Of a stretch of DNA of 64,000 nt, positions 405-59,719 are shown in pieces. Under the pieces are notes generated by a model. The model was given only the letters and a program-made list of their open reading frames with translations. It was not told the origin of the DNA and made no database searches. The position numbers were made by a program, and so were the translations under genes. This DNA is from Clytia hemisphaerica (lineage: Eukaryota): positions 3,356,497 through 3,420,496 of the forward strand of contig NW_027103286.1 in the NCBI RefSeq assembly GCF_902728285.1, in the 5' to 3' direction. The first letter of the stretch is position 1; every line of letters begins with the position of its first letter.

Positions 405-790
405 GTGCTTTAATAGATAACCAGAAAATCATTTACCACTTGGAACTTATTCTTTAGGTAGTGCTGGAGGTGTTGAATTTGACCCATGTGTTTCAATTTT
501 AGTAACACTCATTGGTAAAATTCCGGTGTTTTCGGGTGTTTCCGAAAGGGAAAATGACTTTAATGCTTTTATAGATAACTAGAAAATTATTTACCACTGG
601 AAACTTATTCTGTGGTGACACTCACTTTCTGTAAGGTGTCAATCACGTCCTGTCGTGTACTCAATTTCTGTAGTGTCACTCACTTTCTGTAGTGTCACTC
701 ACTTTCTGTAGTGTCACTCACTTTCTGTAGTGTCACTCACTTTTGGCATTGCTGGAGGTGTTAAAAATGTGCCAGCTCTGTCACTATCTC
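405..790. mobile_element. Partial MITE; same family as the element at 56872-57290. Has subterminal 20-bp tandem repeats (gtgtcactcactttctgta, x5 at ~655-745) and the terminal sequence gtgccagctctgtca.
   Basis: Direct comparison with 56872-57290: shared internal sequence (cttattctttaggtagtgctggaggtgttgaatttgacccatgtg...ggtgtttccga.agggaa.atgactttaatgcttttatagataac.agaaaat) and the same 20-mer repeat. The left end appears truncated. Confidence 0.6.
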
Positions 791-1089
791 ACTACTTATA
801 CATCGTTGGAACGGAAATTTTATGCTGATTATGGAAACCCGGGTCTTAAAAAGTCCATCCTGGACAAAATTGCAAACGAGGCTGGAGTTCGCACTCCGTC
901 GTGGTGTTTTTTCGATTTTACCTGTTTTAGAAAATTGCTTACTGTCGGCAAAGTTAAAGGTTTTAGAATTTCATTTTTTATGCAAAATGCTGTCAATAGA
1001 ATGTGTTAATAGAAAAAAATTCAAAAATGTCGAAAAAAAATTTTTTTGCACTCCATCTTGGAGGATTTTGGCAAAAAATCGATGTTTTT

Positions 1090-3559: not shown

Positions 3560-4560
3560 ATTTTTTTGCATATGTGTTGGAAAAAAAATTCTAGGAGAAA
3601 ACACAGGATTTCCAGTCGTAAATCAAAGGAAAACCTAAATAATGTTATATTTTCTTTAAAAACACCAAAAATCTCGTTTTTCAATGAAAACGCCAACGGA
3701 GGAGTGCAAAATAGCGTTTTGAGCCCACTTTTCTATTTTCTATACTTCATTCTTTTAAAAACATTTAGCAGGGAAATATTTTTGGACTTACTTTGACACA
3801 ATTTCAGTGGTTTATAGACTAGTTTTTGACGAATTTTAATTAAAGATACTGAATTTTGGCTTACAAAATACCGAATTTGACTTAAAACCCCAGCGACGGA
3901 GGGTCATTTTTCGGAATATTTTAGCATTTTGTGTTGGATAAAAATGATTTTAAGAGAAAGATAGGATTTCCAGTCGTAGATCAAAGGAAAAGCTACAAAT
4001 TGTTATATCATTTTCTTCAAAAACACCAAAAATCTTGTTTATCTAAAAACACCAACGGAGGAGTGCAAAATAGCGTTTTGAGCCCACTTTTCTATTTCCT
4101 ATACTTCATTCTTCGAAAAACATTTAGCAGGGAAATATTTTTGGACTTACTTTGACACAATTTCAGTGGTTTATAGACTAGTTTTTGACGAATTTTAAGT
4201 AAAGATACTGAATTTTGGCTTAAAATTACTGAATTTTGACTTAAAACCCCAGTGAAGGAGGGTCATTTTTCAGAATATTTTAGCATTTTGTGTTGGATAA
4301 AAATGATTCTAAGAGAAAGATAGAATTTCCAGTCGTAGATCAAAGGAAAAGCTAGAAAATATTATATTTTTTTCAAAAACGCCAAAAATCACGTTTTTTC
4401 ATTAAAAACACCAATGGGGGAGTGCAAAATAGCGTTTTGAGCCGATTTTTCTTTAATTTGTTATATTTTCTTATTCTTTTATAGTATTTTTAGCAGGAAA
4501 GTATTTTTGGACTTATTTTGACATAATTTCAGTGGTTTATAGACTAGTCTTTGACGAATT
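3560..4560. repeat. Tandem array of the same ~365-bp subrepeats in inverted orientation (right arm of the foldback element).
   Basis: Reverse-complement copies of the left-arm unit at ~3600-3850, 3900-4200 and 4200-4560. Confidence 0.75.
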
Positions 4561-5035
4561 TTAAGAAAAAACATCGATTTTTCGCCAAAATCCTCCGAGA
4601 TGGAGTGCAAAAAAATTTTTTTTCGAGATTTTTGAATTTCTTTCTATTACCCTATTCTATTGACAGCATTTTGCACAAAAAATGAAATTCTAAAACCCTT
4701 TACTATGCTGAGAGTAAGCATTTTTCTAAAACAGGTAAACTCGAAAAAACACCCCGACGGAGTGCAAACTCCAGCCTCGTTTGCAATTTTGTCCAGGATA
4801 GACTTTTTAAGACCCGGGTTTCCATAATCAGCATAAAATTTCCGTTCCAACGATGTATAACAACCCCATTCACCTTCTGGGTTAAGCAAAATTGCTATTT
4901 TGTGATTCTGCTCCCAGACTATAAAGTAGTACAATGTGTACTTAGCTCGAGGCTAATCAATATCAACTATTAATTACAAATCTATCTAGAAGGTTGATAC
5001 TCAAGATCAACTATTATTTACAAAGTAATTTAAAT

Positions 5036-7453
5036 TCAATCAATGAAACCAACGCCATGGATAAAAGTGCGACAGTTTCGGCAAGGACAAGTAGTGGGCC
5101 TCCATTGCTTGATTTCTTTTTTAAATTCATCTAGGTTTTTAAGTTTTTTAAAGTCATCGGGAAGGGTAGCCCAGATTTTAGGTCCCAGGAAAGCTAAAGA
5201 CGATTTTCCATTCATTTCACTTTCAACTACTCTACTACGAAAGGAATTCATTTTTCTCGTTTTGATCTTACATTGGTTTTTGAGAAATATTTTACTTTCT
5301 GATTCATTGAGTTTTGATTTAAATAGCTCTGTGGATAAGGATTGAATTGCTCGTTGATGGAAGGTGGAACTGTTGTCAAGTTTCAACAGATCATCGAATG
5401 ATGAGTTGTAGTCTGAGTAAACGATTCTCAAGCATCTTTTATGTAGATTGTTTATTTTATCCTCTAGAGCTCTGCTATGAAACATCCATATGAGAGGACA
5501 GTAATTGAAGTGGCATTTAATGAAAGCATTCATCAAGCGTTTCTTTTTTTCTAAAGTGAGATATGTGCTCATTCTGGCTAAGGCGGTTATTTTCAAACTA
5601 GCTTTCTTGCAAAGATTTTCTATATGCGATTCAAACGTCAAAAGATTATCGAAGGTTACTCCAAGAATCTTTGACGTTTTGGTATTGAAAACAGTTTCTT
5701 CTCTAATATTTAGATAGAGCGAGTCGTCAATGATGTTAACTATTAGCTGACATTTGTCAGCATTACCAACCATTTGATTAATCGAAAGCCATGTGAAGAT
5801 TTTTTCTGCTCCAGAGCTTAGTTTACCACTTACTTCAATCCAGGTAGGAGCACCAACATAGGGTGTCGTATCGTCCGCATAATTCGCAACCTTAGTATCC
5901 TCAATGATGAAAAAGAGGTCACAGATATAAATATTGAAAAACAGAGGGCCAAGGATTGATCCCTGGGGAACACCATCCTTGATCTTGATCCAGTTACTCA
6001 GTTCGTTGCCTACTTTTGTCCTTTGTTGCCTATTTTCTAGATAACTCTTGACTAACCCAGTGGAAAGGTCATCGAACCCGTATGCACTGATCTTTGCTAC
6101 AAGTAATCTGTGGCACATGCAGTCAAAGGCCTTAGAAAGGTCGATGAGCAGTGCCCCAAAAACATCTTTTTTGTCATTGGCTAGCTTCCAGAGCTCTTCC
6201 ATTGGGAGAAGAGAGGTTTGAGTGGAATATCCTTTCCTGAAACCACATTGTTGTTCATCAAAGTAGTGCTCAAAGTATTCTGATATTTGATTGTGATATA
6301 CTCTTTCGTAAATTTTGGATATTACCGGCAGTATACTTATTGGTCTATAGTTACTTTTATCGTTTTTAGAATTTTTCTTGTAGACTGGGGTGACTGTCGC
6401 GAACTTGGAAATGTTGGGAAAAAAGCCTGAGCTGAAGGAGTCATTTATGCTTATAGAGAAGCAGCTTGCAAATAAGTGAGAGTATTTTTTAATTATTTTC
6501 GCTGGTATATCATTTTCCGCTTGAGACTTATTTGTCTTAAGGTTACTAATTATCTTCTCTACTTCGTCTTCGGTGGTGTTTCTAAACTTGAAGGAGTTTT
6601 CATTGTTTGATACCTTTTCTTTTATTTTGAGTATACTAGGGTGGTTTCTAAAAAGCATTATTTCATTTTGAAGAATATTATCAGAAAGTTCATTGAGAGG
6701 CACTGGTTCTGTTGGTGGTTGATTGAGATCTAATTTTTCAGTGATATTTATGAAGAATTCATTAGACATTTTTGCAATTTCTTTATCATCTTTAATCAGT
6801 TCATCATTTTCGACTAAGGTTATTTTCTCACTTATTGGTCCTTTATTAGAGAAAAAAGGGCGCACAGTTTTCCAAAATCTTTTATTGTCAGTGATTTGCT
6901 TTTCATCCAGAGATTCATAAAATCTTCTTTTAGTGTTTCTCAGAAGATATAAGCATCGGTTTCGCTGTTGGTTGTAATTATATTTGTTGATGTTAGAGGG
7001 GTCTTTTCGTTTAATGTTATTAAGTCGAGATCGATGCATCATGGCCTTTCGTAGTGATTTTGTCATGAAAGGTTTATCATTACCTCTTAGTATTTTAGTT
7101 TTTATCGGTGCTTCAGCGTTTAGAAGATTTACTACACTTTTCATTTTATGTTCAAAGTTGCGATTCGACTCTAGTACTTGTGTTAAATGATTTTTGAAAA
7201 GATCTTCGTTAAGATTTTTGTAGCATCTATATTTAATGGCTTTAGGTGGACACTTTTCAAAAGTGGTTTTTAAGACGCTTATTGTGATGTTGTGAAAGTC
7301 CGATAGGCTATTAGATACAGAGGAAGAGCCCTGAAAAATTCTTTGGTAATTTGTTAGCATCAGATCAATGCATTTCGGATTTTCTGCGTTTTTGAAGCAC
7401 GTAGGTTCATTTATCAAGCTAGAAAGCTCCCTGCTAGCAAGAAACTCAGGCAT
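5036..7453 (-). CDS. LINE ORF2 reverse-transcriptase domain ORF (805 aa).
   Basis: ORF track plus RT motifs (FxDD/YADD box, QG box). Confidence 0.85.
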   Translation of the reverse strand: MPEFLASRELSSLINEPTCFKNAENPKCIDLMLTNYQRIFQGSSSVSNSLSDFHNITISVLKTTFEKCPPKAIKYRCYKNLNEDLFKNHLTQVLESNRNFEHKMKSVVNLLNAEAPIKTKILRGNDKPFMTKSLRKAMMHRSRLNNIKRKDPSNINKYNYNQQRNRCLYLLRNTKRRFYESLDEKQITDNKRFWKTVRPFFSNKGPISEKITLVENDELIKDDKEIAKMSNEFFINITEKLDLNQPPTEPVPLNELSDNILQNEIMLFRNHPSILKIKEKVSNNENSFKFRNTTEDEVEKIISNLKTNKSQAENDIPAKIIKKYSHLFASCFSISINDSFSSGFFPNISKFATVTPVYKKNSKNDKSNYRPISILPVISKIYERVYHNQISEYFEHYFDEQQCGFRKGYSTQTSLLPMEELWKLANDKKDVFGALLIDLSKAFDCMCHRLLVAKISAYGFDDLSTGLVKSYLENRQQRTKVGNELSNWIKIKDGVPQGSILGPLFFNIYICDLFFIIEDTKVANYADDTTPYVGAPTWIEVSGKLSSGAEKIFTWLSINQMVGNADKCQLIVNIIDDSLYLNIREETVFNTKTSKILGVTFDNLLTFESHIENLCKKASLKITALARMSTYLTLEKKKRLMNAFIKCHFNYCPLIWMFHSRALEDKINNLHKRCLRIVYSDYNSSFDDLLKLDNSSTFHQRAIQSLSTELFKSKLNESESKIFLKNQCKIKTRKMNSFRSRVVESEMNGKSSLAFLGPKIWATLPDDFKKLKNLDEFKKEIKQWRPTTCPCRNCRTFIHGVGFID

Positions 7454-27539: not shown

Positions 27540-27660
27540 AAAGATCTGACTAGCCTAGTTAACTAAGCCCGTATTCACACGGCTAATGGCAATATAGCGT
27601 TTTCGGTGCTTTAAAAGGTTTTTTATATTTACGGATTTTAAGTTTGCCTTGGAGTCAGTC
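27540..27660. repeat. Dispersed repeat; an inverted copy occurs at ~52130-52260.
   Basis: tgactagcctagttaactaagcccgtattcacacggctaatggcaatatagcgtttttcggtgctttaaa...tttacggattttaagtttgccttgg is the reverse complement of ccaaggcaaacttaaaatccgtaaata...ccgaaaaacgctatattgccataagccgtgtg.cctagc...gggcttagttaactaggcta at 52130-52260. Confidence 0.7.
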
Positions 27661-28002: not shown

Positions 28003-30080
28003 ATGCCTGATAACATCGATCCTCTGAATCTCTTCAGAAAATCAAGTCTTAATATAGCTCATTTAAACGTGAATGGCCTTAGGTCGAAGCTTTATTTCTT
28101 AAAACTTCTCCTTCACCAAGAAAAATTTGATATTCGATGTCTGAATGAGACTAAAATTGACTCGACAATCACTGATAGTGAAGTCTCTATACCTGGGTAT
28201 TTACCCTGTAGGCTAGACCGCGAACATTCTTTCACGATGATTGATCCCAATTTTTCAAATAGCCCTCACGCTAAAGATTGTTCAATTGCTAATATTGGAA
28301 TAAGTGACCATTCAATTGTTTTTCAAAGAAGAGAGAAACCAATATCAATAGACCAAGGACCATAACCGCCAGGTCCTTTAAAAACTTCAACCAAGAGGCT
28401 TTTCTCGAAGACCTAGGGAATCTCGACTGGTCTGACATGCTCAACTCTACTAATGTAGACGAGGTGGCTGATATCTTTAACACCAATGTGCTAGATGTAC
28501 TTGACCGTTATGCTCCTATGGTTTAGAGAAGGATAAGTCATGATAGCCCTCCATGGGTCAACGAGGTACTACTTAATGTTGAAATTCTTAGCCGATCTCA
28601 ATCAGGTTTCCGAAACAAGTATTCAACTGATACAGCAGTTATTTGTGTGTCAGACTTTATATTAGAAGAGCTTGGGAAAGGGAAGTATGTTGGGACTGTA
28701 TTAGTAGATCTCAAGAAGGTCTTTGACACAGTAGATCATAAAATTCTTTTAAAGAAATTATTCTGCTATGGATTTAGGGACTCCTCATTCTCCTGGTTTG
28801 AATCTTATCTGTCAGACCGTCTTCAATGTACACTCCTAGGAGATACTTGCTCGGACATGATGAACGAATGCGCATACGGGGTTCCACAAGGATCGGTCCT
28901 CGGACCATTGTTATTTCTCCTTTATATAAACGATATTGGTCAAAGTATTCGACCTTCTGTGTTCCACTATCTTTACGCAGACGATACCATCATTGCTGTC
29001 AGTTCTGACTGCCCCGTGAGGCTTAGAAAAGATCTATCTGGCCAACTTTCTGAAGTCGGACATTGGTTCAGCCAAAATAAACTCACGGTAAACACGGGCA
29101 AAACCGAAGTCATATATTTTGGAAGAGCAAACAAACTGAAGGAATGCAAGAGGTTGGTCCCTATCCAATTTCAAGGCGACACTCTTGAATGCAAGGAGAA
29201 AATGAAATATCTCGGTGTCATCTTTGATGAAAACCTAAAATGGGATGCCCAGGCAATAGTGCTCGCCAGAAAGCCTATCTCAAACTAAACAAAAGGCATC
29301 TCTAGCTTTCTTGAAGATCACATGAAAAAAATGCTTTTAAATGCTCTTGTTATGCCACACATTACATATTGTTCCAATTCTTGGAGCACTATGTCAAAGG
29401 CAAACCACAACAAGTTTGATTCAGTCCTGAGCAACATCTCTAAAACCATGCCCATCAATAAGACACAAGTATGCAAGGACGTGAAGGTCGAACCGACATC
29501 GACCACCTTGTCAGGGGAGACTTTTGAAACTAAAACGACCAACATCCAAGACCATGCTCGTCTCGACATTGCTGCTAGGGGATTTTGGATTCCTGGCCAG
29601 AAGGCATTCTTCGACGTAAGGGTTTCAACCCAATCGCCAAAAAGTTCAGGAATTCCACTATCTCCAAAGCATGCAATGCAAACGAAAGGGATAAAAAGAA
29701 CATTTATAATTCAAGAATCATGAAAGTTGAGCAACGTCTCTAAAACCGTGCCCATCAACAAGACATTTGATCAGATTGTCGAATACAATAAAACACTGAT
29801 GATGTTCAAAGGGATGCGCAACATTGCGCCAAAATATTTGTGTGATCGGGTAAAGCCTGCTAGCGAGCGACATGAACGCCGCACTCGCTTTGCAAGAGAG
29901 AATAAAGTCTTTGTCCCTCTTTCCAAAAACACTTTTGCTAGTCGAACGTTCATTACCTCAACCACACATCTGTGGAACAATCAACCTTTAGAAATAAAAC
30001 AATGTGAATCCCTTTTATCGTTTAACACTATTTTTATTAGGGGGGTGTTTTCCACAAGCCTAGCACTCTTTTGCTAATAA
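28003..30080 (+). mobile_element. Decayed CR1/L2-like LINE (EN fragment 28003-28365, RT fragment 28647-29288, C-terminal region 29322-30077), with internal deletions and a short internal duplication.
   Basis: EN: LNIAHLNVNGLRSKL...IRCLNETK. RT: GTVLVDLKKVFDTVDH, AYGVPQGSVLGPLLFLLYIND, YLYADDTII. C-terminus: LNALVMPHITYCSNSWS. A duplicated block LSNISKTMPINKTQ (29440) / LSNVSKTVPINKTF (29730). Confidence 0.8.
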
Positions 30081-30910: not shown

Positions 30911-31204
30911 GGTCGACGTTTAGAAACTTATTGCTTATCCCCTTATTGCTTACGCACATTTTGGATTGTGAGAAAAGTGACGACATCTGAGACCGCTTGT
31001 TGATTTGATTCAGCGAAAATGTGTCCCTGTGAAATTTGCACGGAACAGCGGAACACTTTTTTTTCATAAATCTACATCGTAATTATACTACAAAGTTTCG
31101 CAGATAATTGATCTAATTAAAAACTTGTTTTCTAATCTTCTAATGAAAAAACATTGAAAGCGATTATAATCTTTTCTTTCCGAATGCCTCAACGATTACA
31201 CGTT

Positions 31205-31450
31205 TTTATCCATAAGAACATCCAAAATTTTTGAAGCCTTCGGATGTTCTTAACTTTTTGAGTTTATAGCCTAAGAATATTCTTAACATGTTCTTGTTTT
31301 CACCGATTTTTGAGTATTTTTGTCCATTTGCCTAAGAAATCAGGTGTTTTAGAGTCCGCGAAGCCTTAAAATATTCTTAACCTGTTCTTAGTATTTTGGC
31401 CATCGAAGCCTTATGTTCTTGTATAGTTTGTTCTTATGGAAAAACGTGTA
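31205..31450. repeat. 'aagaacat' short interspersed repeat (MITE/SINE-like); other copies at 47520-47720, 51790-52040 and 55215-55500.
   Basis: Shared blocks ...gccttcggatgttcttaac...aaaatattcttaacctgttcttag.attttggccatcgaagc.ttatgttctt...aaaacgtgta... Confidence 0.65.
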
Positions 31451-41072: not shown

Positions 41073-44000
41073 TCAAATATGGACGCTATTTGTCAGCCAT
41101 TTTGGTTCCATGATTTGATAACCCAATTGATTTTTGGCTTTACGTTCAGCATTTCTTGTTTCTAGCTTCTTTTGGACGATGGTGTTCAAGCGATAAAAAG
41201 CTTTGCGCACAATTCGTCGGTATGTCGGGTTTGTGATATCTTTCCAGTATGAGAAAATCCTGTTCACTCGGAAATTGGCCAGCAAACCTCTGAACATCAT
41301 ATATTGCTGAAAAGGAATTTAATTTTCAAATTAATTATATAGATATGGTATTAACAAAACCCATGCGGCCAAGCGACCAAGCCCTGTAAACGGTCTAAGT
41401 TATAACCTAGGATTTGTAGATATAAAACACCCTATTGGTTTACTCAACTTTCAGCTGATAGTTTGAAAGTCTTCAAATGAAAACCACATAATGAGGCCCC
41501 CCCAGCGGTTGGCGTGATGGCGTGATGGAGGGTTTTTCGTGGCGTGATGGCGTGAAATTTTGAAAAAAAACGGCGTGATGGCGTGAAAATGAAGTGCCGG
41601 CGTGATCGTGAAATCGAGATTTTTTAGGCGTGATGGCGTGAAATTTTCAGTTCAGCGTGATCGTGAAATTATATTTATTAGTTGAATTGTATTTCTATGT
41701 CCATTTTAGCCAATTTAGAGGGTTTAAATTTCAAAATTTTCTTGGTCGGCCCTAACTATGGTGGGGCCTCCTATAGATTAGATTTCATTTTAAAACATAA
41801 AAGAAACGGTGCAAACAGTTCTATTCATCTGTCATTTATCCTTGTAACTTCTGATTGTTTTTAGCAGTTGCTAGCTAGTCTTCAAAATAAAGTCGAATGC
41901 TATGAGAGGGTCGAAAATTGAAATTTTTTCCCGTCAGCGAAAACCATGGTTGCGCTTTCTCCGTAACTAACATTTCCCTCTCTTTCTTAGATGCTTATTC
42001 TTAGATGCATCCAAGACATCAGGTCCTTTATTTCAGGAAAATATACATTTGTAGCAAAGCCATAAACAGAAAGAAGCAACAGGTTTATTATGAGGGTGTA
42101 ACTTAAGCAGATTGATCAAAAGAATCTGTGATGTTTAAACCATATTTTGGAAAAAAAGAGAGTAAATGAGGGCGATTTTAGCCATACTAAATTAAAAATT
42201 TCTCCTGTCGGTGCAAACCATGGTTGCGCCTCCTCGTTCCCCTTTTGAAAACTTTTCACGCTAATTCACAATTAATGTACTTTTAAAAGATTTCCATTAT
42301 TTTTACATGAGTTATTTTTCAAATTGAATTGAAATGGATCCCAAAATAGCACTTTGAACCCTTCAAAATTCAAAAATTTTCTCCGTTACCCAACCATGGT
42401 GGGCTTTGTCAATTTACTCAAACCGGTGCCCTTTGATGTGACCAGTTGTCCAACAATGTTTTATATGCATAAGTCAAGATTACGTCATTTTTCCTATCGG
42501 AAACACCCGAAAAAACTGGAATTTACCCCTGTGTATTACTAAAAATAGAAAAACAGATGTCAAATTTCTTCCAGATTTTTCGGGTGTTTCCGATAGGAAA
42601 AATGATATAATCTTGACTTGCTTACGCGTATGAGAATGCCGATGAAAAACTGATTAACGACCAAGCACATACCTATTTGTGTTTATATATAACAAAAATT
42701 ATGAGCATGAAAATAAATTTTCTAGGCGTAATGGCGTGAAATCGAAAGAAATTGGCGTGATCGTGAAAATCAAATTTTTCAGGCGTGATGGCGTGAAATC
42801 GAAAAAAAATTGGCGTGATGGCGTGAATTTTGGGTCCGCTGGGGGGGCCTCCATAATATACTCACAACATTGTAAAGTTTCCCAGTAAGAGCTTTCAATA
42901 AGGGCAGGTCTGTTCCATCTAGATTTTGATAAAGTCTAGTGGGTGAAGTTGGCATGAAATCTCTGTAATCAGGATAATTTGCTGAAGTGTGGAACAAGTT
43001 AATCCACAGAAAGCGTTTTAAGAACGTCCTCAACTGATCGCATGTTTCGAACTTTGCTGGAAAACCTTTCATCTAAATGAAATAACAATAGAGATATTGG
43101 CTGGGAAGAAGAAGAAGAAAATATAAGCGCGAAAACAAATTTCAGGTGTCGGAAGTGTATTCAAAGAGATACATGTAAGGAAGAAGGTCAAAAATTGAAA
43201 CTCTTCATTTTTAGCAAAACATTGTCTTGAGTTTCGAGTTTGGTAATACACTCTCAAAGCCAACGCAGACCTGTTACGCACTGGGAAAAAAACCCAAAAA
43301 TTAAACCCTGGTAAACAAATAATATCCAGTTGAAAAGCTTTAATTTGGAAAATGAGACATGGGTTTGGTGACATTTAAACACATTCCACACCTTTCCTCG
43401 CCCAGCATCAGGTTGAACCGTTCCTTCAGGCGACAACTCGTTAGCCCATGATTGTAATTCAGCGTCCCTGTGAATTCTTCCTCTTCTGTAATAAGTCTTG
43501 ATGATGTCATCGATGAAAGTCTCGTATTCTTTCATAATTTCTTTGACGTCATCACGGAAAGGGTAATATTTAATGTCCTCGTCATCCAAACCGTTACCCT
43601 GGAAACGCAAAATATTGGATTCTTTAAAACAAGATTCTAAGGGATAGTTTCAAAGTCGGTAAGAAATATTATGTACGCATTCTAGATCATATTATGAGTA
43701 AATTTACAATTTTGCATAAGCCATTTAGTTTAAAAAACTACCCCAGGTCAAATCTTAATAAAGGTAAAACGCCTTTACGCATTGTTCTTACCTCAATGAA
43801 ATCTTCATAAGTGTTGCTTTCATAATCTCGTTCTGCAAAAGCTTTTTGCGACAAATCAAGAAAACCTTGATTCCCGGTTCCGTAGATGACACTACCCGCA
43901 GCATTGGGTGTGGTCAAAGTCTCAAAGACTGTGGTGATATGAGGGACAGTCCCTTCACAATGGTGCTTAAAGAAATCATAGAGGGGGTGCTTGGTGCTCA

Positions 44001-48362: not shown

Positions 48363-49690
48363 CTAAATATAACTATCAATAACATTTTTCCATTCCACAC
48401 GATTCAAAGCTTTCCCATACCACTCACATTTCAATATACCAACTTTATTCAAACTTTTGTAAACTCCACGCCCATACGTGAATTCAGGGGCCCCGCGTGG
48501 GCGCCTTTCGCTAACCCAGCATGTCAGCATCTTACGGGGCAAACGATCAGAGGGCATTCGGGTTACGTGCCCTAACCAGCGTAGTTGGCGACGTGTAACA
48601 TATACATCAATAGAGAGCAAACCAGTGCGCTCAAGCAATTCAGCCGTCGAAATTCGGTGGGATCTCACATGATTTAAGTTAACACGGCATATGGTGCGGA
48701 CACAACGAGCATGAAAAACTCTCAACTTTCTATAAACAATTTCAGTAAGGCACCAGTGCTCAGAGCCATATAACAAAATCGCCAGAACAATGCCTTCGTA
48801 GACAGATTTTTTTGCTGCGAACGAAACATTAGTAGAACGGAATAAACAATTTCTCAAAGCTCCAAACGCACTGCTGGCTGCTTTTATTCTCGACTCGACG
48901 TCAAGGGTATCTTTACAATCACGCGATAGGATTGACCCCAGGTAACAAAAACGATCGACGATCGGCATATGGGATGCATCATCGATTTTGACATTACCAA
49001 GATTCGTATTATCGAAAGACAGGGGATCGGTATAGGTTTGGTTCGGAGCAGAAACAAACAAAATTTCAGATTTAGAGCTTTTCTCTTCGGTACCAACATG
49101 GATTTCTAGACCGAATCTTAGAAAATGCTTGACTAGTGGTGGAAGGTAGGTTTCGACAGAGCTTCTTGATGTGAATAGAACTCCGGTATCGTCAGCATAC
49201 TCAGAGTCCGGTAACGAAAACTGTTCACATTTTTTAGTTGAAGGTCGTCTACCGGTTAGGATATCGTCAAACTTGGTGTGAAAGATACAGACTTCTCGTG
49301 TGTGAGTGGTTCTCCAAGATATCATTACAGCAGCAAGGTAGAAAATGAAAAGGAGTGGACCCAGTATATCACCCTGTTTGACACCAATTATACTTTCGAT
49401 CCTTTTAGTGATGTCATTTACAACAAACTTAACTTCCACATTTGCGTGAAGTGATTTAAGCAGACGTACAAGTTTATCAGGGACACCAAAAATATATAAC
49501 ACTTCCCAGAGAAGCTCGCGCGGTACTCGATCAAAGGCTTTGACCAGGTCGAGAAATAATATCCAAGTCTCTTGGCCATGTTCCCTGCGCTTTTTCATTG
49601 CCATTTTTACTGTGAAGATCCCGTCAACACATCCACGCCCAGGACGAAAGCCGCACTGGGGTTCATGGTCAAGGATCTGCTACCACCTCA
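48363..49690 (-). mobile_element. 5'-truncated non-LTR retrotransposon fragment (RT domain, RTE/L2-like).
   Basis: 413-aa ORF 48363..49604 with FLDLVKAFDRVPRELL, GVKQGDILGPLLFIFYL, EYADDTGVLF. An upstream extension QILDHEPQCGFRPGRGCVDGIFTV (to ~49690) ends abruptly, as expected for 5' truncation. Confidence 0.85.
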
Positions 49691-50395
49691 AGCAAAGCCA
49701 AAAAATGGAATTGGCCAAATTACACCGGGCTCACATCAGCGCCATTCAGTTTATCAAAAAGCTATAAGTCCCCGGGCTACGCATTAACATTTCTTTGTTT
49801 TTAGCGGCATATTTTTCGAAACCGGGCGATGGGTTTTACTTTCAATTTGGCGTTTACGTGAAAACCACGCGGGTCACGCATTTTGGACGGGAAATAAGTG
49901 GCTTTGAAATCAATGGTGAAGGCATCCAAGCTCCCGCGGCCTCTTTCTTAATCCCCACGTCCAATGTCTATTGAACATAAAGCATGAGTTTTAATCACTC
50001 TTAGCCCTCGCTTACAGACCAGGTTCCTGATTCAATTGATAATACTATGATAATGTTTATTCAATTTATCCAAGAAAATTAAATAAATCCACTCCACTTT
50101 TTTGATCTTACTGGTATTTACACTAGGTAGTTTGATTGAACAGGTTTTTTTTCGTTTTTTTTTATTGAAGAGTAATCATTTAAATCAGTTTAATCGATCA
50201 AAATCAAGTTAAAATGGTAAAAGATAAAGGCCACTTTGATGTTGAAAATGCAAAATTATGTCCCTTATAACACCGGCTCTCAATCTACTGCGACCAAAAA
50301 ATAACGCTAATATCAGCCAGCGTAAAAAAGGACTGAGAAAGTATCAAAGTTATTGTTGGGGAGTCTTATAATAAGTAGCTTTCATATCCCATAGT

Positions 50396-51729
50396 TCAGG
50401 AGATACCAAGATATTCTCTGAGACATTTCGGTAGATTATCATTCAGAAAGGTGTCACTGAAACTTCTCAAGCAAGCCATTCGTGCGATATGTTTCAAGGA
50501 GATTTTCAAATGATTATATGGTGGAGTTACTTTCGCAAATTGTAGCACACTGTTTGGATTTCGGAATGCTATCTCCTGCATGTGTAAATTGAATGAAAAG
50601 TCACCAATCCATCTCTTGAAATCATGAATTATACTTTGTTCTCCCGATCCAAAATCATACAAATAAATTGACGCGAATCGTTTGTTTCCTCCTGGAGTGA
50701 CTTGAAGGCCAGTGATGAAGTACTGCCCAAAACATTCCACAACTTTGTTGAAAAAGATATGTTTTCCTTGGTAAAGCAAATTGATTATTTTCAATGGGAT
50801 AACCTCATTTTTGCTGTTGACTTGAAAGAATTTTAAGCTTTTTACCCTCGTTTTGATATCGCTCAAGTGCATAAAGAATACAGATTTTGACAAATGGTAC
50901 AACATTTGATCCTCGAAAGTCTCTTTTTCATCATCAATAGTCACTCGTTCAGCCAGAACTTGATTTCCTGAAAAATCGAAACCATATAAGAACGGACCAT
51001 ATAATCATAGTCGTGGATAAAAATTCTCTCCGAACTAATATCTATGGACAGCTGGAGATCTATGTGGGATGTGTCGAATGTACCGGGTTCGAAACTAAGC
51101 TCAGTACAATTACTCAGCACAACACGCTTGAAATGTGATAGCTTTGTCTTGTCCATTAAGACAATATCAGCCACAAAATTAAAACCACCGGTAGAAACAA
51201 GCACCATTAAGGCGTAACCATATTCTTTGGTTTTTCCCTGCCAAAAACATTGGATGCACTGCAAAGCTTTATATGGCTCCAGTTCAATGACACAATCCTC
51301 CGTTTCTTGAAAAGTGGTTGATACAATACTTCCTGGAGGAGCACCTAAAAGGTGTTTCATGCTTCCACTATGTAATATCAAAGGTTGGCTCCCATCTTCC
51401 AAAGTCGAAGGCTTCTCAAACACAAACCAACGATTAAGTGAAGCGTTATAGGGCCAATCACATTCTAAAAAATTAGAATCGTTCCACGTTGGTAATTTAA
51501 TCAAACTCATTTGTAATTTAGCTGTTTCCTCATTGAATGAATAAACAGCGATGACATGATCATCTGTGCTGTCCCATGGCCTGGTATATGAAGTATAATA
51601 TCTTCCAGAGCTGTCAAAGCCACACACAGTTCGGTATACGGGCGGGTCAAGTCCAGTCCACGTTTCTTTTGTCTCTACACATTCGGTGAGATGAGGTGGT
51701 AAGAACACTTGCCGTGGGTAAGCCAACAT
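50396..51729 (-). pseudogene. SOCS-box family copy 1, split into two overlapping ORFs by a frameshift near 50941 and ~13 bp shorter than copies 2 and 3; divergent (~60% aa identity) apart from its first ~25 codons.
   Basis: ORFs 50941..51729 (MLAYPRQVFLPPHLTECVETKE...) and 50396..50944 (...NHLKISLKHIARMACLRSFSDTFLNDNLPKCLREYLGIS) are collinear with the 448-aa copies but in different frames. Confidence 0.55.
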
Positions 51730-51789
51730 TCCTTTTTTGATATTTGAGGATTATCTTAACTCGTTTGCATTTTTATTCCTGAAAAAACA

Positions 51790-52040
51790 AAAACAGATTA
51801 TACGATGGCGAAAGTGTTAAGAACAAGTTAAGAACATTTTAAGGCTTTGGCGACTTTTAAACACCCGATTTCTTAGGAAAACGGACAAAAATACTCAGAA
51901 AATGCTGAAAATAAGAAAATAAGAACATCTTAAGAACATTTTTTGGCTTAAAATCAAAAAAGTTAAAAGCATCAGAACATCCGAAGACTTCAAAAATTTT
52001 GGATGTTCTCATAAAAAGAAGACGTGTATGGACTGGAGCA
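51790..52040. repeat. 'aagaacat' repeat copy (reverse orientation) just upstream of SOCS-box copy 1; the same repeat sits upstream of copy 2 (55215-55500).
   Basis: Reverse-complement match to the 31205-31450 family; 51730-52060 is ~95% identical to 55130-55500. Confidence 0.6.
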
Positions 52041-52079
52041 TAATAGGTCATTCTTCAGTAGCCTAGAAATCTAAGCTAG

Positions 52080-52260
52080 TTTGATTCAGTCACTTGGATA
52101 AATCTGATGGTTAAGTTGTGACTGAATAACTAGTATTCCAAGGCAAACTTAAAATCCGTAAATATAAAAAATCTTTAAAGCGCCGAAAAACGCTATATTG
52201 CCATAAGCCGTGTGTCCTAGCCTTGTGAATACGGGCTTAGTTAACTAGGCTAATTCTTCA
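52080..52260. repeat. Insertion of the 27540-27660 repeat family (inverted) in duplication unit 1; it is absent from the unit-2 paralogous position (~55500).
   Basis: See 27540-27660. The flanking sequence cattcttcagtacccttgacaataaat.atggattgattttttggcc is shared with 55501-55560. Confidence 0.55.
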
Positions 52261-53783
52261 GTACCCTTGACAATAAATAATGGATTGATTTTTTGGCCTA
52301 TTCCACAGAAAAATTAGCCTGTACCACCCCGAATGCCAACAGGCGATTTTGTCTTTTCTGCAAAGAAAAGTTTGGTACAAGTTCCAAAGAATGTATTTAG
52401 AGAATTGAGAGGGGTTACGCAAATGAAGACAGACAAACATTTTCATTGAAAGACTGACATGACAGGCAAGACTTGCAAGGTAGAAAAGTGCGTAAAATAT
52501 CGATGAATTTAAAAATTTCGTAGTCATGATTGATACCACGAGATAGAAAATGATATTAAGAGATTTACAAATTATGATAGGATATACAGTCATTGAAAGC
52601 GGAGAGTCTAACCTAAGATAGAGTGGTCTACCAGTTGTCATCAAACATCATAAAAGATGCGCCCAAGAGATGAAAATTTTCACAATGTCCAGAATTGAAA
52701 ATTAGATTTAAGTCTCAGACACAAAAAATGGCACCTGTTTGTGTAATTTACAGACCAGAATAGCAGGTTTGCAGGTTAAAGTGATTTTTTAAAAACCTTT
52801 TTAACAGTTTTTTTACTCTGCTTAAAGCTTTCAACAATACGTCAATGAATTAATTTTTGCTGGAGAATTTGATCGCTGACACTTGATTGATGTTCGAGGA
52901 ATGATTTTTTATAAATTCTTTTCCCTAACTTTCTCAGATTTTTGATGGACACTACACAATTTTCGCAGTGACTGCCGGGTGTGCCAGAAATAAATTAGCT
53001 TCTTGGATTTGATATTGTAGACAGTAGAAAAGAGATTTTTCAAAGTTTTTTTTCGGAATCAATCAGAAGAAACTTAAAATTTGGTGTATTACTTCTTAAT
53101 TTTACTGCATTAGTTTAAAAGTTATGTTCAAAAACTTAAAATGTCAATTCTAAAAAATCGATTTCATGCATCAGGAAATGTATTTCCATTATGTAAAAAG
53201 CACTTATTTACAAGGTTAGGCATCCCTGTAAATACATTCCATCATCTGTGAATCGAGATGAGCTGCAACAGTTTTGTGCAACTTTTGCAACTTCAAATTT
53301 TGTGAAAGTGAAACTCTCACCTTTCTCAACGATATGATGCACACACAGGAAAACTTTTGGAAATTCTTGGAAAGATGTTGAAAGATTTGTGGGGGTTGAA
53401 GCATTCTGCATCTTGCCCAAGGGGAAAAAACAATAGAGGTAAAGAAAGCAGAGTGTTACAAGGAGTAAGACTTTAAAATGTTTTGGCCTGCAAGTCCTTT
53501 CTCTCATAAATCGATACCCTTGTTTTTAGCCTTTTGACAATTTTTAAAAACTAACATTTTAGGTTTTTGAACATAACTTTTGAACCGATGAAGCAAAATT
53601 AAAAAGTAATACACAAAATTTTAAGTTAGGCTTTCTCTGAACGATTCCGAAACAGTCTTTGAAAAATAATGTTACTGCCTGCAATATCAAGTCAGCGAGG
53701 GTTACTTATTTCTGGCACACTCGGTATATATAAAAAAATTGTCAGAAACTTTGTTTTAAATTTACTCTAAATTTTGCGTCATT

Positions 53784-55130
53784 TCAAGCGAGTCCAAGAT
53801 ATTTACTGAGACATTTCGGTAGATTGTCCTTCAAGAATTCGTCATGAAAACTTTTCAAGCAAGCCATTCGTGCCATATGTTTCAAGGACATGTTTAAATG
53901 ATCAAAAGGAGAATTCACTTTTACGAAGCGTAGATAAGGGCTTGATAAATACATCAAACTTGCTGTTGGGTCAAAAAGCGCTATTTCCGCCATATGCCAA
54001 TTAATTGAAAAACCGTAAATTTCTCTTCTACAATCGTACCGGATCATCAGTTCTCCTGATTTGAAGTCGTACAAACAAACCGAATGAAATGGTTGGGAGC
54101 CTGCTTCTGAAGTGACTTGAAGGCCTTCGACAAAAAATTGATCAAAACATCCAACGACTTTGTGTAAAATAATATCGTTTCGTCCATGACACAAATTAAT
54201 TCTTTTCAATGGGATGACCTCATTTTTATTGTCGACTTGAAAGACCTTTATGCTTTTTGCCTTCGTGTCAACGTTCTCCAAAAAAACATAGAAGATCGAG
54301 TTTGACAAATGATATAAATCATTAAAATTCTGAACACCTTCCCTTTCGGAGATTGTGACTTCATAATCCATAAGGCGATTTCCCTCAAAATCAAAACCAT
54401 ATACCATACCATATTCATAATTATGAAGGTAAATTCTCTTAGAATTCATATCTAGCGATACACCAGAATTATGGAACGCAAACGTTCTAGGTTCGAAATC
54501 CATTTCAGTGCAACTGCTCAACACAACACGTTGGAAATGTGAAAGTCTTTTTTCGCCTATTAAAACGATGTCAGCCACAAAATTGTAACCACCAGGAGAT
54601 ACAAGCACCATCAAGACGTAACCATATTCTTTGGTTTTTTCCTGCCAAACACTATGGATGTAATGAAAAGCTTTATATGGCTCCAGTTCAATGACACAAT
54701 CCTCCGTTTCTTGAAAAGTGGTCGATACAATACTTCCTGGATAAGCATATAAAAGGTGTTTCAAGCTTCCACTGTGTAATATCAAAGGCTGGCTCCCATC
54801 TTCCAAAGTCGAAGGCTTCTCAAACACAAACCAACGATTAAACAAAGGATCATACGGAAAGTCATATTCATTATAGCGCAAGTTCCATGATGGTAATTGA
54901 ATTAAACTCACTTGTAGTTTATCTGTTTCCTCATTGAATGAATAGACGCTTATGATATTGTCACCTGCTTTATCCTCAGCTCCGCAATATACGGTGTAAT
55001 ATTTCCCAGAGCTGTCGAAGCCACTCATACTTATTTGCTGGGGGCGGTCAAGACCAGCCCACATTTCTTTTGTCTCAACACATTCGGTGAGATGAGGTGG
55101 TAAGAACGATTGACGTGGGTAAGCCAACAT
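53784..55130 (-). CDS. Intronless gene (copy 2 of a tandem triplet) for a 448-aa protein with a C-terminal SOCS-box-like motif and an uncharacterised ~400-aa N-terminal domain.
   Basis: Uninterrupted ORF with ATG at 55130. C-terminus ...SPFDHLNMSLKHMARMACLKSFHDEFLKDNLPKCLSKYLGLA resembles the SOCS-box consensus (SLqHLCR..I........LPLP..L..YL). Confidence 0.6.
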   Translation of the reverse strand: MLAYPRQSFLPPHLTECVETKEMWAGLDRPQQISMSGFDSSGKYYTVYCGAEDKAGDNIISVYSFNEETDKLQVSLIQLPSWNLRYNEYDFPYDPLFNRWFVFEKPSTLEDGSQPLILHSGSLKHLLYAYPGSIVSTTFQETEDCVIELEPYKAFHYIHSVWQEKTKEYGYVLMVLVSPGGYNFVADIVLIGEKRLSHFQRVVLSSCTEMDFEPRTFAFHNSGVSLDMNSKRIYLHNYEYGMVYGFDFEGNRLMDYEVTISEREGVQNFNDLYHLSNSIFYVFLENVDTKAKSIKVFQVDNKNEVIPLKRINLCHGRNDIILHKVVGCFDQFFVEGLQVTSEAGSQPFHSVCLYDFKSGELMIRYDCRREIYGFSINWHMAEIALFDPTASLMYLSSPYLRFVKVNSPFDHLNMSLKHMARMACLKSFHDEFLKDNLPKCLSKYLGLA

Positions 55131-55214
55131 TCCTTTTTTGATATTTGAGGATTATCTTAACTCGTTTGCATTTTTATTCCTGAAAAAACAAAAACAGATT
55201 ATACAATGTAAGGT

Positions 55215-55500
55215 GTGATCTACACGTTCTTTTCTATAAAGAACAAACTATATAAGAACATGAAGCTTCAATGGCCAAAGTGTTAAGAACAAGTTAAGAA
55301 CATTTTAAGGCTTAGGCGACTTTTAAACACCCCATTTCTTAGGAAAACGGACAAAAATACTCAGAAAATGGTGAAAATGAGAAAATAAGAACATGTTAAA
55401 AACATTTTTAGGCTTAAAATTAAAAAGGTTAAGAACATCCGAAGGCTTCAAAAATTTTGGATGTTCTCATAAAAAGAAGACGTGTATGGACTGGAGCATA
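55215..55500. repeat. 'aagaacat' repeat copy upstream of SOCS-box copy 2.
   Basis: As for 51790-52040. Confidence 0.6.
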
Positions 55501-55974
55501 ATAGGTCATTCTTCAGTACCCTTGACAATAAATTATGGATTGATTTTTTGGCCTATTCCACAGAAAAATTAGCCTGTACCACCCCGAATACCAACAGGCG
55601 ATTTTGTCTTTTCTGCAAAGAAAAGTTTGGTACAAGTTTCAAAGAATGTATTTAGAGAATTGAGAGGGGTTACGCAAATGAAGACAGACAAACATTTTCA
55701 TTGCCTAAAGACTGACATGACAGGCAAGACTTGCAAGTTAAAAAATTCGTAAAATATCGATAAATTTAAAAATTTCGTAGTCATGATTGATACCACGAGA
55801 TAGAAAATTATATTAAGAGATAAACAAATTATGATAGGATATACAGTCATTGAAAGCGGAGAGTCCTTTTTTATGAATTATAAAATTGTATAAAATGGTT
55901 ATTTTAAAAGTGTATAAATATTATGAAAATAATAAATAATTTTTTGCAAAATCCGAAATTTAAATATAAGATGG

Positions 55975-56340: not shown

Positions 56341-56871
56341 TGGGAATGATAAGATACTTTCATAATAGAATTTGATTGATTCAAATGACCACGTAAAAAA
56401 TATTCTCTCTTTGCAGTGAACTTTCTCAAATTGAATTGATCCCTTTTTATCTGGCTGGGGAGATAAGATAAGTATTAATTTTTATAATGCGTTCTATCAA
56501 ATAACTTGATAAATTCTATCAGAAGTTAAAAGGTCAAAAGCGAGCCATAAAAAATCTTCAACCTAAGATATATAACCTACCAGTTATGCTAAACATTACA
56601 GAAGTTATGCGCAAAAGATGAACATTTTCAAAGTGCTAGAATTGAAAATTAGATTTAATTAAGGACTTATTTACAAGGTTAGGCATCCCTGTAAATACAT
56701 TCCATCATCTGTGAATCGAGATGAGCTGCAACAGTTTTGTGCAACTTTTGCAACTTCAAGTTTAGTGAAAGTGCAACTTTTACCTTTCTCAACGATATGA
56801 TGCACACACCTAGGAAAACTTTCGGAAATTCTTGGAAAGATGTTGAAAGATTTGTGGGGGAGAAGTAGATT

Positions 56872-57290
56872 TATGACAGAGCTGGCACATACAGAAGGTG
56901 AGTGACACTACAGAAAGTGAGTGACACTACAGAAAGTGAGTGACACTACAGAAAGTGAGTGACACTACAGAAAGTGAGTGACACTACAGAAAGTGAGTAC
57001 ACTACAGAATGTGAATGACACCTGTGAACTTATTCTTTAGGTAGTGCTGGAGGTGTTGAATTTGACCCATGTGTTGCAATTTTAGAAACACTCATTGGTC
57101 GAATTCCGGTGTTTTTGGGTGTTTCCGATAGGGAACATGACTTTAATGCTTTTATAGATAACCAGAAAATTATTTACAACTTGAAACTTACTCTGTGATG
57201 ACACTCACTTTCTGTTAGGTGTCATTCACGTTCTGTAGTGTACTCACTTTCTGTATGTGCCAGCTCTGTCATAAATCTACTACCTGGGGG
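56872..57290. mobile_element. Complete MITE with ~30-bp TIRs (gaagtagatttatgacagagctggcacat / atgtgccagctctgtcataaatctactac) and subterminal 20-bp tandem repeats, inserted in duplication unit 3. The paralogous empty site is at ~53400.
   Basis: 56860 gatttgtggggg|a gaagtagatttatgacagagctggcacatacagaaggtgagtgacactacag(x5)... ...ttctgtatgtgccagctctgtcataaatctactac|ctgggggtagaggtattctgcatc. Unit 2 has gatttgtgggggttgaagcattctgcatc uninterrupted. Confidence 0.75.
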
Positions 57291-57717
57291 TAGAGGTATT
57301 CTGCATCTTGTTTATGCCCAAGGGAAAAACAGAAGTAAAAAAAAACAATAGAGATAAAGAAAACATAGAGTGTTACAAGGAAAAAGACTTTGTACTTTAA
57401 AATGTTTTGGCCTGCAAGTCCTTTCTCTCATAAAACGATACCCTTGTTTTTAGCCTTTTGACAATTTTTTAAAATTGACATTTTAGGTTTTTGAACATAA
57501 ATTTTGAACCAATGAAGTAAAATTAAAAAGTAATACACCAAATTTTAAGTTAGGCTTTCCTCTGAATGATTCCGAAACAATCTTTGAAAATCTTTCTGTT
57601 ACTGCCTGCAATATCTAGTCAGCGAGGGTAACTTATTTCTGGCACACTCGGTATATACAAAAAATTGTCAGAAACTATTTTATTTTAAATTTAGTCTAAA
57701 TTTTGTGTCATTTCAAC

Positions 57718-59064
57718 TCAAGCGAGTCCAAGATATTTAATGAGACATTTCGGTAGATTGTTCTTCAAGAATTCGTCATGAAAACTTTTCAAGCAAGCCA
57801 TTCGTGCCATATGTTTCAAGGACATCTTTAAATGATCAAAAGGAGAATTCACTTTTACGAAGCGAAGATAAGGGCTTGATAAATACATCAAACTTGCTGT
57901 TGGGTCAAAAAGCGCTATTTCCGCCATATGCCAATTAATTGAAAAACCGTAAATTTCTCTTCTACAATCGTACCGGATCATCAGTTCTCCTGATTTGAAG
58001 TCGTACAAACAAACCGAATGAAATGGTTGGGAGCCTGCTTCTGAAGTGACTTGAAGGCCTTCGACAAAAAATTGATCAAAACATCCAACGACTTTGTGTA
58101 AAATAATATCGTTTCGTCCATGACACAAATTAATTCTTTTCAATGGGATGACCTTATTTTTATTGTCGACTTGAAAGACCTTTATGCTTTTTGCCTTCGT
58201 GTCAACGTTCTCCAAGAAAATATAGAAGATTGAGTTTGACAAATGATATAAATCATAAAAATTCTGAACACCTTCCCTTTCAGAGATTGTGACTTGATAA
58301 TCCATAAGGCGATTTCCCTCATAATCAAAACCATATAACATACCAAAATCATAATTATGAAGGTAAATTCTCTTAGAATTCATATCTAGAGATACACCAG
58401 CATTACTGAACGCAAACGTTCCGAGTTCGAAATCCATTTCAGTGCAACTGCCCAACACAACACGTTGGAAATGTGAAAGTCTTTTTTCGCCTATTAAAAC
58501 GATGTCTGCCACAAAATTGTAACCACCAGTAGAAACAAGCACCATTAAGACGTAACCATATTCTTTGGTTTTTTCCTGCCAAACACATTGGATGTAATCA
58601 AAAGCTTTATATGATTCCAGTTCAATGACACAATCCTCCGTTTCTTGAAAAGTGGTAGATACAATACTTCCTGGAAGAGCACCTAAAAGGTGTTTCAAGC
58701 TTCCACTGTGTAATATCAAAGGCTGGCTCCCATCTTCCAAAGTCGAAGGCTTCTCAAACACAAACCAACGATTTAACAAAGGATCATACGGCAAGTCATA
58801 TTCATTATAGCGCAAGTCCCATGATGCTAATTGAATTAAACTCACTTGTAGTTTATCTGTTTCCTCATTGAATGAATAGACGCTTATGATATTGTCACCT
58901 GTTTTATCCTCAGCTCCGCAATATACGGTGTAATATTTCCCAGAGCTGTCGAAGCCACGCATACTTATTTGCTGGGGGCGGTCAAGACCAGCCCACATTT
59001 CTTTTGTCTCAACACAATCGGTGAGATGAGGTGGTAAGAACGATTGACGTGGGTAAGCCAACAT
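57718..59064 (-). CDS. Intronless gene (copy 3) for a 448-aa SOCS-box-like protein, ~93% identical to copy 2.
   Basis: ORF with ATG at 59064. C-terminus ...FDHLKMSLKHMARMACLKSFHDEFLKNNLPKCLIKYLGLA. Confidence 0.6.
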   Translation of the reverse strand: MLAYPRQSFLPPHLTDCVETKEMWAGLDRPQQISMRGFDSSGKYYTVYCGAEDKTGDNIISVYSFNEETDKLQVSLIQLASWDLRYNEYDLPYDPLLNRWFVFEKPSTLEDGSQPLILHSGSLKHLLGALPGSIVSTTFQETEDCVIELESYKAFDYIQCVWQEKTKEYGYVLMVLVSTGGYNFVADIVLIGEKRLSHFQRVVLGSCTEMDFELGTFAFSNAGVSLDMNSKRIYLHNYDFGMLYGFDYEGNRLMDYQVTISEREGVQNFYDLYHLSNSIFYIFLENVDTKAKSIKVFQVDNKNKVIPLKRINLCHGRNDIILHKVVGCFDQFFVEGLQVTSEAGSQPFHSVCLYDFKSGELMIRYDCRREIYGFSINWHMAEIALFDPTASLMYLSSPYLRFVKVNSPFDHLKMSLKHMARMACLKSFHDEFLKNNLPKCLIKYLGLA

Positions 59065-59719
59065 TTCTTTTTTGAAAATACTCTGAACTTTATTTCATAT
59101 TTATTATCACTAAAACAGAGAAAAATACAAAATAGACAGTTAACTCTCACTTATTCAAATTAGAGTGGGGAGTCCAATCTGTACCAATTATATACAGAGA
59201 GATTCAAATAATTGAAATTATTTTTTTAAGTAGGGTTTTCACTTGACAGGAACTGAGTATTTGTTCCAATTAAAGAAAGAATCCAATAATTAATATAATT
59301 TCCAATTAGCGAGAGTATCTGTATCTGAACTGTATCCACTGTAACTGAATTTCATATAAAGAAATGCTTCTCTGAGAAATATTAGCTTTATTCAATGCTC
59401 AATTGACCTAATGACTAGTGTCATAGGAAGAAGAAGAGTTGGTATTTTCATTCTAAATCTTGTCATTAAATGTACTGATAAGAACGAATTACTAAAATAC
59501 TAATCATCATTATCATTTTTCTTTTGTTCAACCTCTACAGTTATAAAACAAGCTGAATGCCAAAAGATTTCACAAGAAAATTATTGGATTTTATCGATTT
59601 TTAGTAAAAAGTTAAAAAATGATCTAATTAAACTTTACAAAAGTAAGATGTACGCATAGACTCTCATAATCCCAAATTAAACCATACAAAAGGAGATTCT
59701 TTCTTGTTTTTTTGGGTAT

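Follow-up and report, generated by a model that had tools for sequence, protein, structure and literature searches.

Non-autonomous hAT elements are typically similar in size to the element described here and combine long terminal inverted repeats (TIRs) with subterminal repeated motifs, and hAT insertions are recognised by an 8-bp target site duplication (TSD) and YARNG tips. The P superfamily, with its Galileo-like elements, produces TSDs of 7-8 bp, and its THAP-type transposase binds subterminal repeats. In Galileo of Drosophila, which is Foldback-like, direct tandem repeats lie in the inverted termini and their number varies by arm and by copy (PMC3573991). Tandem repeats within TIRs that are unequal between the arms are a known feature of Galileo and of other elements, and for such repeats a role as secondary sites of transposase binding has been proposed or shown; short Galileo derivatives made of two TIRs are common (PMC3573991). 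Among cnidarian MITEs, past mobility was recognised from a filled and an empty site for the piggyBac-derived CMITEs of Acropora, which are ~100 bp long, with 13-14-bp TIRs, a CC[C/T]T tip and a TTAA TSD (PMC2872659). In MSITEs (e.g. Microuli from Aedes) the inverted repeat begins a few nt inside the ends, and the MSITEs cited make TTAA TSDs (PMC2872659). The usual TSD of IS3EU / GingerRoot elements is 6 bp, and complete IS3EU families end in TA..TA (PMC10045372). A full-text literature search found no paper on MITEs of Clytia.

We analysed a stretch of 64,000 nt from Clytia hemisphaerica (hereafter the window; 36.6% G+C, no Ns), in which LINE-type reverse-transcriptase ORFs and exons of THO complex subunit 1 are present. 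The element under study, copy A, lies in the 3' flank of one of two duplicated intronless genes (unit 3), and the other duplicate (unit 2) carries the same site empty; a second family member, copy B, was found near the beginning of the window (Table 1). Copy A is best read as a MITE of ~0.42 kb, a non-autonomous DNA transposon with TIRs; this reading draws on its structure, its sharp boundaries with a duplicated target, the uninterrupted paralogous site and a second copy at a dispersed locus. That such an element inserted after the duplication of units 2 and 3 is the reading we favour, with a probability of roughly 0.85.

Table 1. Positions of copy A, its target sites, the duplicated units and related elements in the window.
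Feature	Position	Strand	Remarks
Copy B, second family member	406..795	+	5'-truncated and rearranged; right end directly next to the foldback (start 796)
Palindromic element	42471-42619		149 bp; arms of 51 nt, 94% complementary
Duplication unit 2	53198..55141	-	448-codon intronless ORF 53784-55130 and ~590 bp of 3' flank, without the MITE
Empty target TGGGGG, paralogous unit 2	53390..53395	+	
Duplication unit 3	56661..59075	-	448-codon ORF 57718-59064 and 3' flank with the MITE
Left target copy TGGGGG	56855..56860	+	read directly; identical to 57285-57290 and to the single unit 2 copy
AGA, 3 nt between left TGGGGG and TIR	56861..56863	+	1/3 positions pairs with ACC 57282-57284
Left TIR, AGTAGATTTATGACAGAGCTGGCACATACAGAAGGTGAGT	56864..56903	+	98% complementary to 57242-57281
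Left subterminal array, 7.0 x TACAGAAAGTGAGTGACAC	56890..57021	+	first unit overlaps the inner TIR
Non-repetitive core	57022..57197	+	no homologue among predicted proteins
Right subterminal array, ~3 degenerate inverted 19-bp units	57198..57259	-	
Right TIR	57242..57281	-	pairs with the left TIR
ACC, 3 nt between right TIR and TGGGGG	57282..57284	+	
Right target copy TGGGGG	57285..57290	+	from direct reading and alignment

The inverted-repeat core of copy A spans 56864-57281 (418 bp). Its TIRs measure 40 nt and are complementary at 39/40 positions (98%), and a 26-nt TIR core gave 0 matches in 100 shuffles. The first-pass annotation had placed the element at 56872-57290 with TIRs of 30 bp; that interval misses the first 8 nt of the left arm and overshoots the right arm by 9 nt, and the length of the TIRs was likewise revised. 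The subterminal tandem repeats that it had described were recovered, with a measured period of 19 bp in place of 20 bp. The unit TACAGAAAGTGAGTGACAC is repeated 7.0 times on the left arm (TRF period 19, 95% matches), and ~3 degenerate copies stand in inverted orientation on the right arm, where TRF reported 3.0 copies with a period of 18 at 57202-57259. In total the 19-mer was counted 13 times, compared to a mean of 0.01 in 100 shuffles, and the innermost stretch of each TIR is itself the first 19-bp unit of the array. Folded as a single strand, copy A gives a long hairpin (-107 kcal/mol, z = -15.4).

Copy A is without coding capacity. The longest stop-to-stop frame of its 176-bp core is 56 codons, which is of unremarkable length and open in both copies; a protein search with this frame found no homologue, and Rfam gave no match within 56600-57500. 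The element combines three of the features by which MITEs are recognised: terminal inverted repeats, a small size without coding (418-424 bp depending on the tips, under about 800 bp) and a TSD that is single at the empty site. Further marks of MITEs are numerous homogeneous copies dispersed through the genome, of which two lie in these 64 kb, and an autonomous partner with shared termini. Part of the core (57059-57141) resembles the loop and one arm of the palindromic element at 42471-42619 (77-84% similar); either a chimeric MITE core or descent shared with another small repeat family could account for this.

The empty site was characterised by comparing the two duplicated units. In a self-comparison of the window, unit 2 and unit 3 were collinear and on the same strand on both sides of the insertion, with 95.5% identity between 53198-53395 and 56661-56860, and 94.9% identity between 53425-55141 and 57340-59075. 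When the two 3' flanks were aligned globally (MAFFT), unit 2 showed one gap of 430 nt, followed in size by an indel of 20 nt. The initial claim had been that unit 3 carries a MITE in a block that is uninterrupted in unit 2, and pairwise alignment of the two target regions had been proposed as a check; with collinear flanks, corresponding positions and this one gap, the claim was borne out. The hexamer TGGGGG forms a perfect direct repeat at the two edges of the gap and is single in unit 2. Unit 2 reads GATTTG-TGGGGG-TTGAAGCATTCTGCATC, and unit 3 reads GATTTG-TGGGGG-AGA-(inverted-repeat element)-ACC-TGGGGG-TAGAGGTATTCTGCATC. A perfect 6-nt repeat that bounds the insertion, together with a single TGGGGG at the empty site, is the expected signature of a TSD; in one register, a 6-nt junction repeat would arise by chance with a probability of about 2e-4. 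A short (c)tggggg duplication had been suggested from the flanks, and its TGGGGG part is perfect over 6 bp, the C-extended 7-bp form containing one mismatch.

Copy B had been reported as a 5'-truncated member at 405-790 next to a large foldback, and it does abut the foldback, with boundaries at ~406-795. Over 443-672 it is 92.6% identical (7.4% divergence) to copy A at 57026-57255. Its right terminus is recognisable (...ATGTGCCAGCTCTGTCACTATCTCACTAC) and ends at 795. Copy B has neither the left TIR nor the left array; the stretch found there instead, 406-452, partially duplicates 565-611. Its right arm holds 7 copies of the 19-bp unit (array 608-743), compared to 3 on the right arm of copy A, which means that the unit number on this arm varies within the family. 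The flanks of copy B are unrelated to those of copy A. This demonstrates that the sequence has dispersed outside the segmental duplication, the two family members in the window being 56 kb apart. Beyond these two and the partial relative at ~42.5 kb, a search of the window with nhmmer and a fuzzy TIR pattern revealed no further copies. None of the metagenome contigs scanned held an exact match to a 30-nt double repeat unit or to a 22-nt core, and viral contigs scanned with the TIR core gave no match either.

The second copy bears directly on whether copy A is mobile at all. An element made up largely of a 19-bp array and the same array inverted could in principle be a local, non-mobile hairpin or minisatellite, formed by an inverted duplication and expansion of the 19-bp repeat. 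However, copy B shares the core, the 19-bp unit and the terminal sequence with copy A at a distance of 56 kb and between unrelated flanks, and the boundaries of copy A are sharp and bear a direct repeat of the target. We consider a local origin of this kind extremely unlikely, and the transposon reading is followed below.

On the most economical reading of the junctions, the element would be 424 bp long (56861-57284), its 3-nt tips would be imperfect and its TSD would measure 6 bp. The AGA at 56861-56863 is then probably the imperfect outer tip of copy A. The outermost 3 nt on the two sides (AGA / ACC) are non-complementary, which is unusual in a young insertion. At the right end, copy B reads ...TCTCACTAC(T) where copy A reads ...TCTACTAC(C); since copy B ends with ...ACTAC(T) at the matching place, at least the AC at 57282-57283 belongs to the element. 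The TSD is perfect over 6 bp, the 7-bp reading GTGGGGG/CTGGGGG has one mismatch, and the 8-bp reading GTGGGGGA/CTGGGGGT has two; tips and TSD length are both read from a single junction pair, that of the one intact copy.

The termini and junctions were compared with the standard superfamily signatures, none of which clearly matches a 6-bp TSD (or one of 7 bp with one mismatch) together with 3 unmatched terminal nt. The TA duplication of Tc1/mariner (Stowaway-like) elements was not seen at the junctions GGGGGAGA/AGTAGA and TCTACT/ACCTGGGGG. Were an internal TA the TSD, unit 3 would have to contain 18 additional nt absent from unit 2, and copy B shares sequence past that TA. For PIF/Harbinger (Tourist-like) elements a 3-bp TWA duplication is expected, and the flanking triplets are AGA/ACC or GGG/TGG. 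For Mutator / Foldback elements, with TSDs of 9-10 bp, the 9 nt adjacent to the arms read TGGGGGAGA and ACCTGGGGG, which do not form an in-register direct repeat. The piggyBac signature (TTAA TSD, CC[C/T]T tips) does not fit, TTAA being absent from both junctions. Copy A resembles the Acropora CMITEs as a cnidarian MITE with a filled and an empty site, and differs from them in its size (418-424 bp), its 40-nt TIRs, its TGGGGG duplication and its junctions without TTAA. Its inverted repeats begin inside the ends, as in MSITEs, but by only 3 nt, perhaps because the TIR tip is imperfect, and the duplication is not TTAA.

The remaining candidates share at least one property with copy A. A 6-bp TSD is the length found in IS3EU / GingerRoot, but the termini are AGA.../...ACC and not TA..TA, and when the element is bounded by TA (56866, 57279) the flanking hexamers GAGAAG and CTACCT do not match. 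The size, long TIRs and subterminal repeats recall non-autonomous hAT elements; the tips GAAGT.../...ACTAC do not fit YARNG and an 8-bp TSD needs two mismatches, although in a single copy this weighs only weakly against hAT. In architecture copy A is Galileo-like, with 7 repeat units on one arm and 3 on the other, and with 7 on the right arm of copy B; the 7-bp reading of its TSD, GTGGGGG / CTGGGGG, has one mismatch in the single copy from which it can be read. Galileo TIRs extend from hundreds of bp to more than 1 kb, and the Galileo TSD is 7 bp; the Clytia element has arms of ~60-160 bp and a perfect TSD of 6 bp.

Units 2 and 3 are about 95% identical and 1.5 kb apart, and they are not arranged head to tail; the breakpoints of the duplication are 53198/56661 and 55141/59075. 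The duplication extends over the ORF, ~12 nt upstream of the ATG and ~590 bp of 3' flank. The two ORFs are both intact and differ at 44/1344 sites (3.3%), with dS 0.042 and dN/dS about 0.75, and neither gave a Pfam hit. An origin of the duplication by retroposition was not supported, no poly(A)/poly(T) being present at the 3' boundary (poly(T) on the plus strand was checked). The MITE lies 437 bp past the stop codon of the unit 3 gene, and AATAAA occurs 34 nt after that stop; the element may or may not be transcribed as part of this gene.

The order of events was judged from these two paralogues without an outgroup, and insertion after the duplication is the parsimonious order. The first-pass annotation had taken the empty site to date the insertion after the segmental duplication and to show recent mobility of the family; the first point holds as parsimony and not as proof, and the second holds relative to the unit 2/unit 3 duplication only (dS about 0.04), without reaching to current activity. 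The opposite order, in which the element was ancestral to the duplication and was then precisely lost from unit 2, would require two events, and one of these would have to restore the target base for base. Routes for such a loss would be excision with exact repair, deletion between the TGGGGG copies, for which these two copies offer microhomology, or gene conversion with an empty allele as donor. In most cut-and-paste superfamilies an excised element leaves a footprint behind, and unit 2 contains exactly one TGGGGG and no footprint. In favour of a loss, the target block has no outgroup paralogue inside the window, the older paralogue, unit 1, being without it, and the divergence between copies A and B is not below that between units 2 and 3, so the family is not obviously younger than the duplication. 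Weighing these points, we regard a precise loss as unlikely, and insertion into unit 3 after the duplication as the better account.

The filled and empty sites could also be an allelic presence/absence, if units 2 and 3 were haplotypes of one locus that the assembler had placed in tandem. In outbred marine invertebrates ~95% identity falls in the range found between haplotypes, and the identity of the two units, with many small indels, lies within it. The shared segment is, however, only ~1.95 kb long, ends ~12 nt upstream of the ATG and has differing sequence on either side, which makes it unlike a collapsed or expanded haplotig. The window is without N gaps, and a third, older paralogue (unit 1, 74% identical) indicates that this gene family duplicates locally. 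A mis-join of haplotypes is for these reasons very improbable, and we treat units 2 and 3 as true paralogues.

Unit 1 is split into two ORFs (262 + 182 aa) and is probably a pseudogene, though its 262-aa part is annotated in UniProt: the 262-codon ORF at 50944-51729 is identical at 262/262 aa to the C. hemisphaerica entry A0A7M5TQR3, which marks the sequence as hydrozoan nuclear DNA. An exact-protein look-up with both 448-aa ORFs, the 262-aa UniProt entry and an 805-aa LINE ORF matched no record. The three local paralogues of the intronless gene lie at 50395-51807, 53784-55130 and 57718-59064; they have no Pfam domain, and a SOCS-box-like C-terminus was noticed by eye. Upstream of units 1 and 2, 51805-52608 and 55221-55865 are 92-96% identical, though the genes themselves are only 74% identical. 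These upstream regions also match an inverted sequence at 31197-31450, and 27551-27653 was grouped with them; they look like a dispersed repeat family rather than a conserved promoter.

The target of the MITE in unit 2 lies within the 381-bp loop of a 750-bp inverted-repeat element (52975-53724), whose arms of ~184 nt (52975-53158, 53540-53724) are 77-86% complementary. The left breakpoint of the duplication, 53198, falls inside this element, and unit 3 retains a partial copy (56661-57651) with only part of the loop and the right arm (57464-57651). Since the target is inside an older inverted-repeat element, the MITE insertion is nested. The target had been called a conserved non-coding block; it is the loop of this element, and as an older repeat it gives no evidence of a conserved regulatory element.

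The transposition of copy A can be outlined on the general model of DDE transposition, from which the transposase, the binding role of the 19-bp motif and the 6-nt staggered cut are drawn. The element would carry only the cis signals for transposition, namely the 40-nt TIRs and the arrays of 19-bp motifs inside each end. A transposase encoded elsewhere in the genome would act in trans by binding the TIRs and the 19-bp motifs, the latter serving as putative secondary binding sites; within the 64-kb window, no transposase ORF bearing these TIRs was found. The enzyme would pair the ends and excise the element, and integration would follow from a staggered cut, with nicks 6 nt apart, at a G-rich target, where gap repair would duplicate TGGGGG. 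The recipient site would have been in the 3' flank of the 448-aa gene, in one member of a young pair of paralogues and presumably after these had been duplicated.

A MITE insertion of this sort is an ordinary event and leaves current understanding unchallenged. The empty paralogue fixes both the target and the size of the duplication, and thereby provides an internally controlled case of transposition in Clytia hemisphaerica, in which the insertion can be no older than the divergence of the paralogues allows (dS about 0.04). The element can be used as a seed for TE annotation and possibly as a presence/absence marker. The combination of a 6-bp G-rich TSD, inverted repeats that begin 3 nt inside the ends and expandable 19-bp arrays might also point to a DNA-transposon lineage that is uncharacterised in cnidarians and perhaps still active in laboratory strains of Clytia; we consider this improbable. 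Were the family still active, the element would be a naturally occurring insertional mutagen in this model jellyfish, or might serve there as a vector.

Other repeats were recorded in the same window. The foldback element next to copy B spans 796-4860 and starts directly after the end of copy B at 795. Its arms (796-2107 and 3538-4860) are inverted and 89.6% identical, its termini are TTATACATCGTTGG...CCAACGATGTATAA, and it contains internal tandem repeats of 350-360 bp (1159-2009, 3527-4569). The junctions are compatible with a TA duplication, T/TA/TACATCG...CGATGTA/TA/A, and the foldback was probably inserted beside or into the tip of copy B. Remnants of LINE-like retrotransposons with RVT_1 were found at 5036-7453, 28003-29723 and 48363-49604, the 805-aa ORF lying directly after the foldback. 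An ORF of 1141 codons at 19797-23222, which gave no Pfam hit, has at its start an imperfect coding tandem array of 24/84/108 bp (19763-20250) that encodes Q/P/T-rich repeats.
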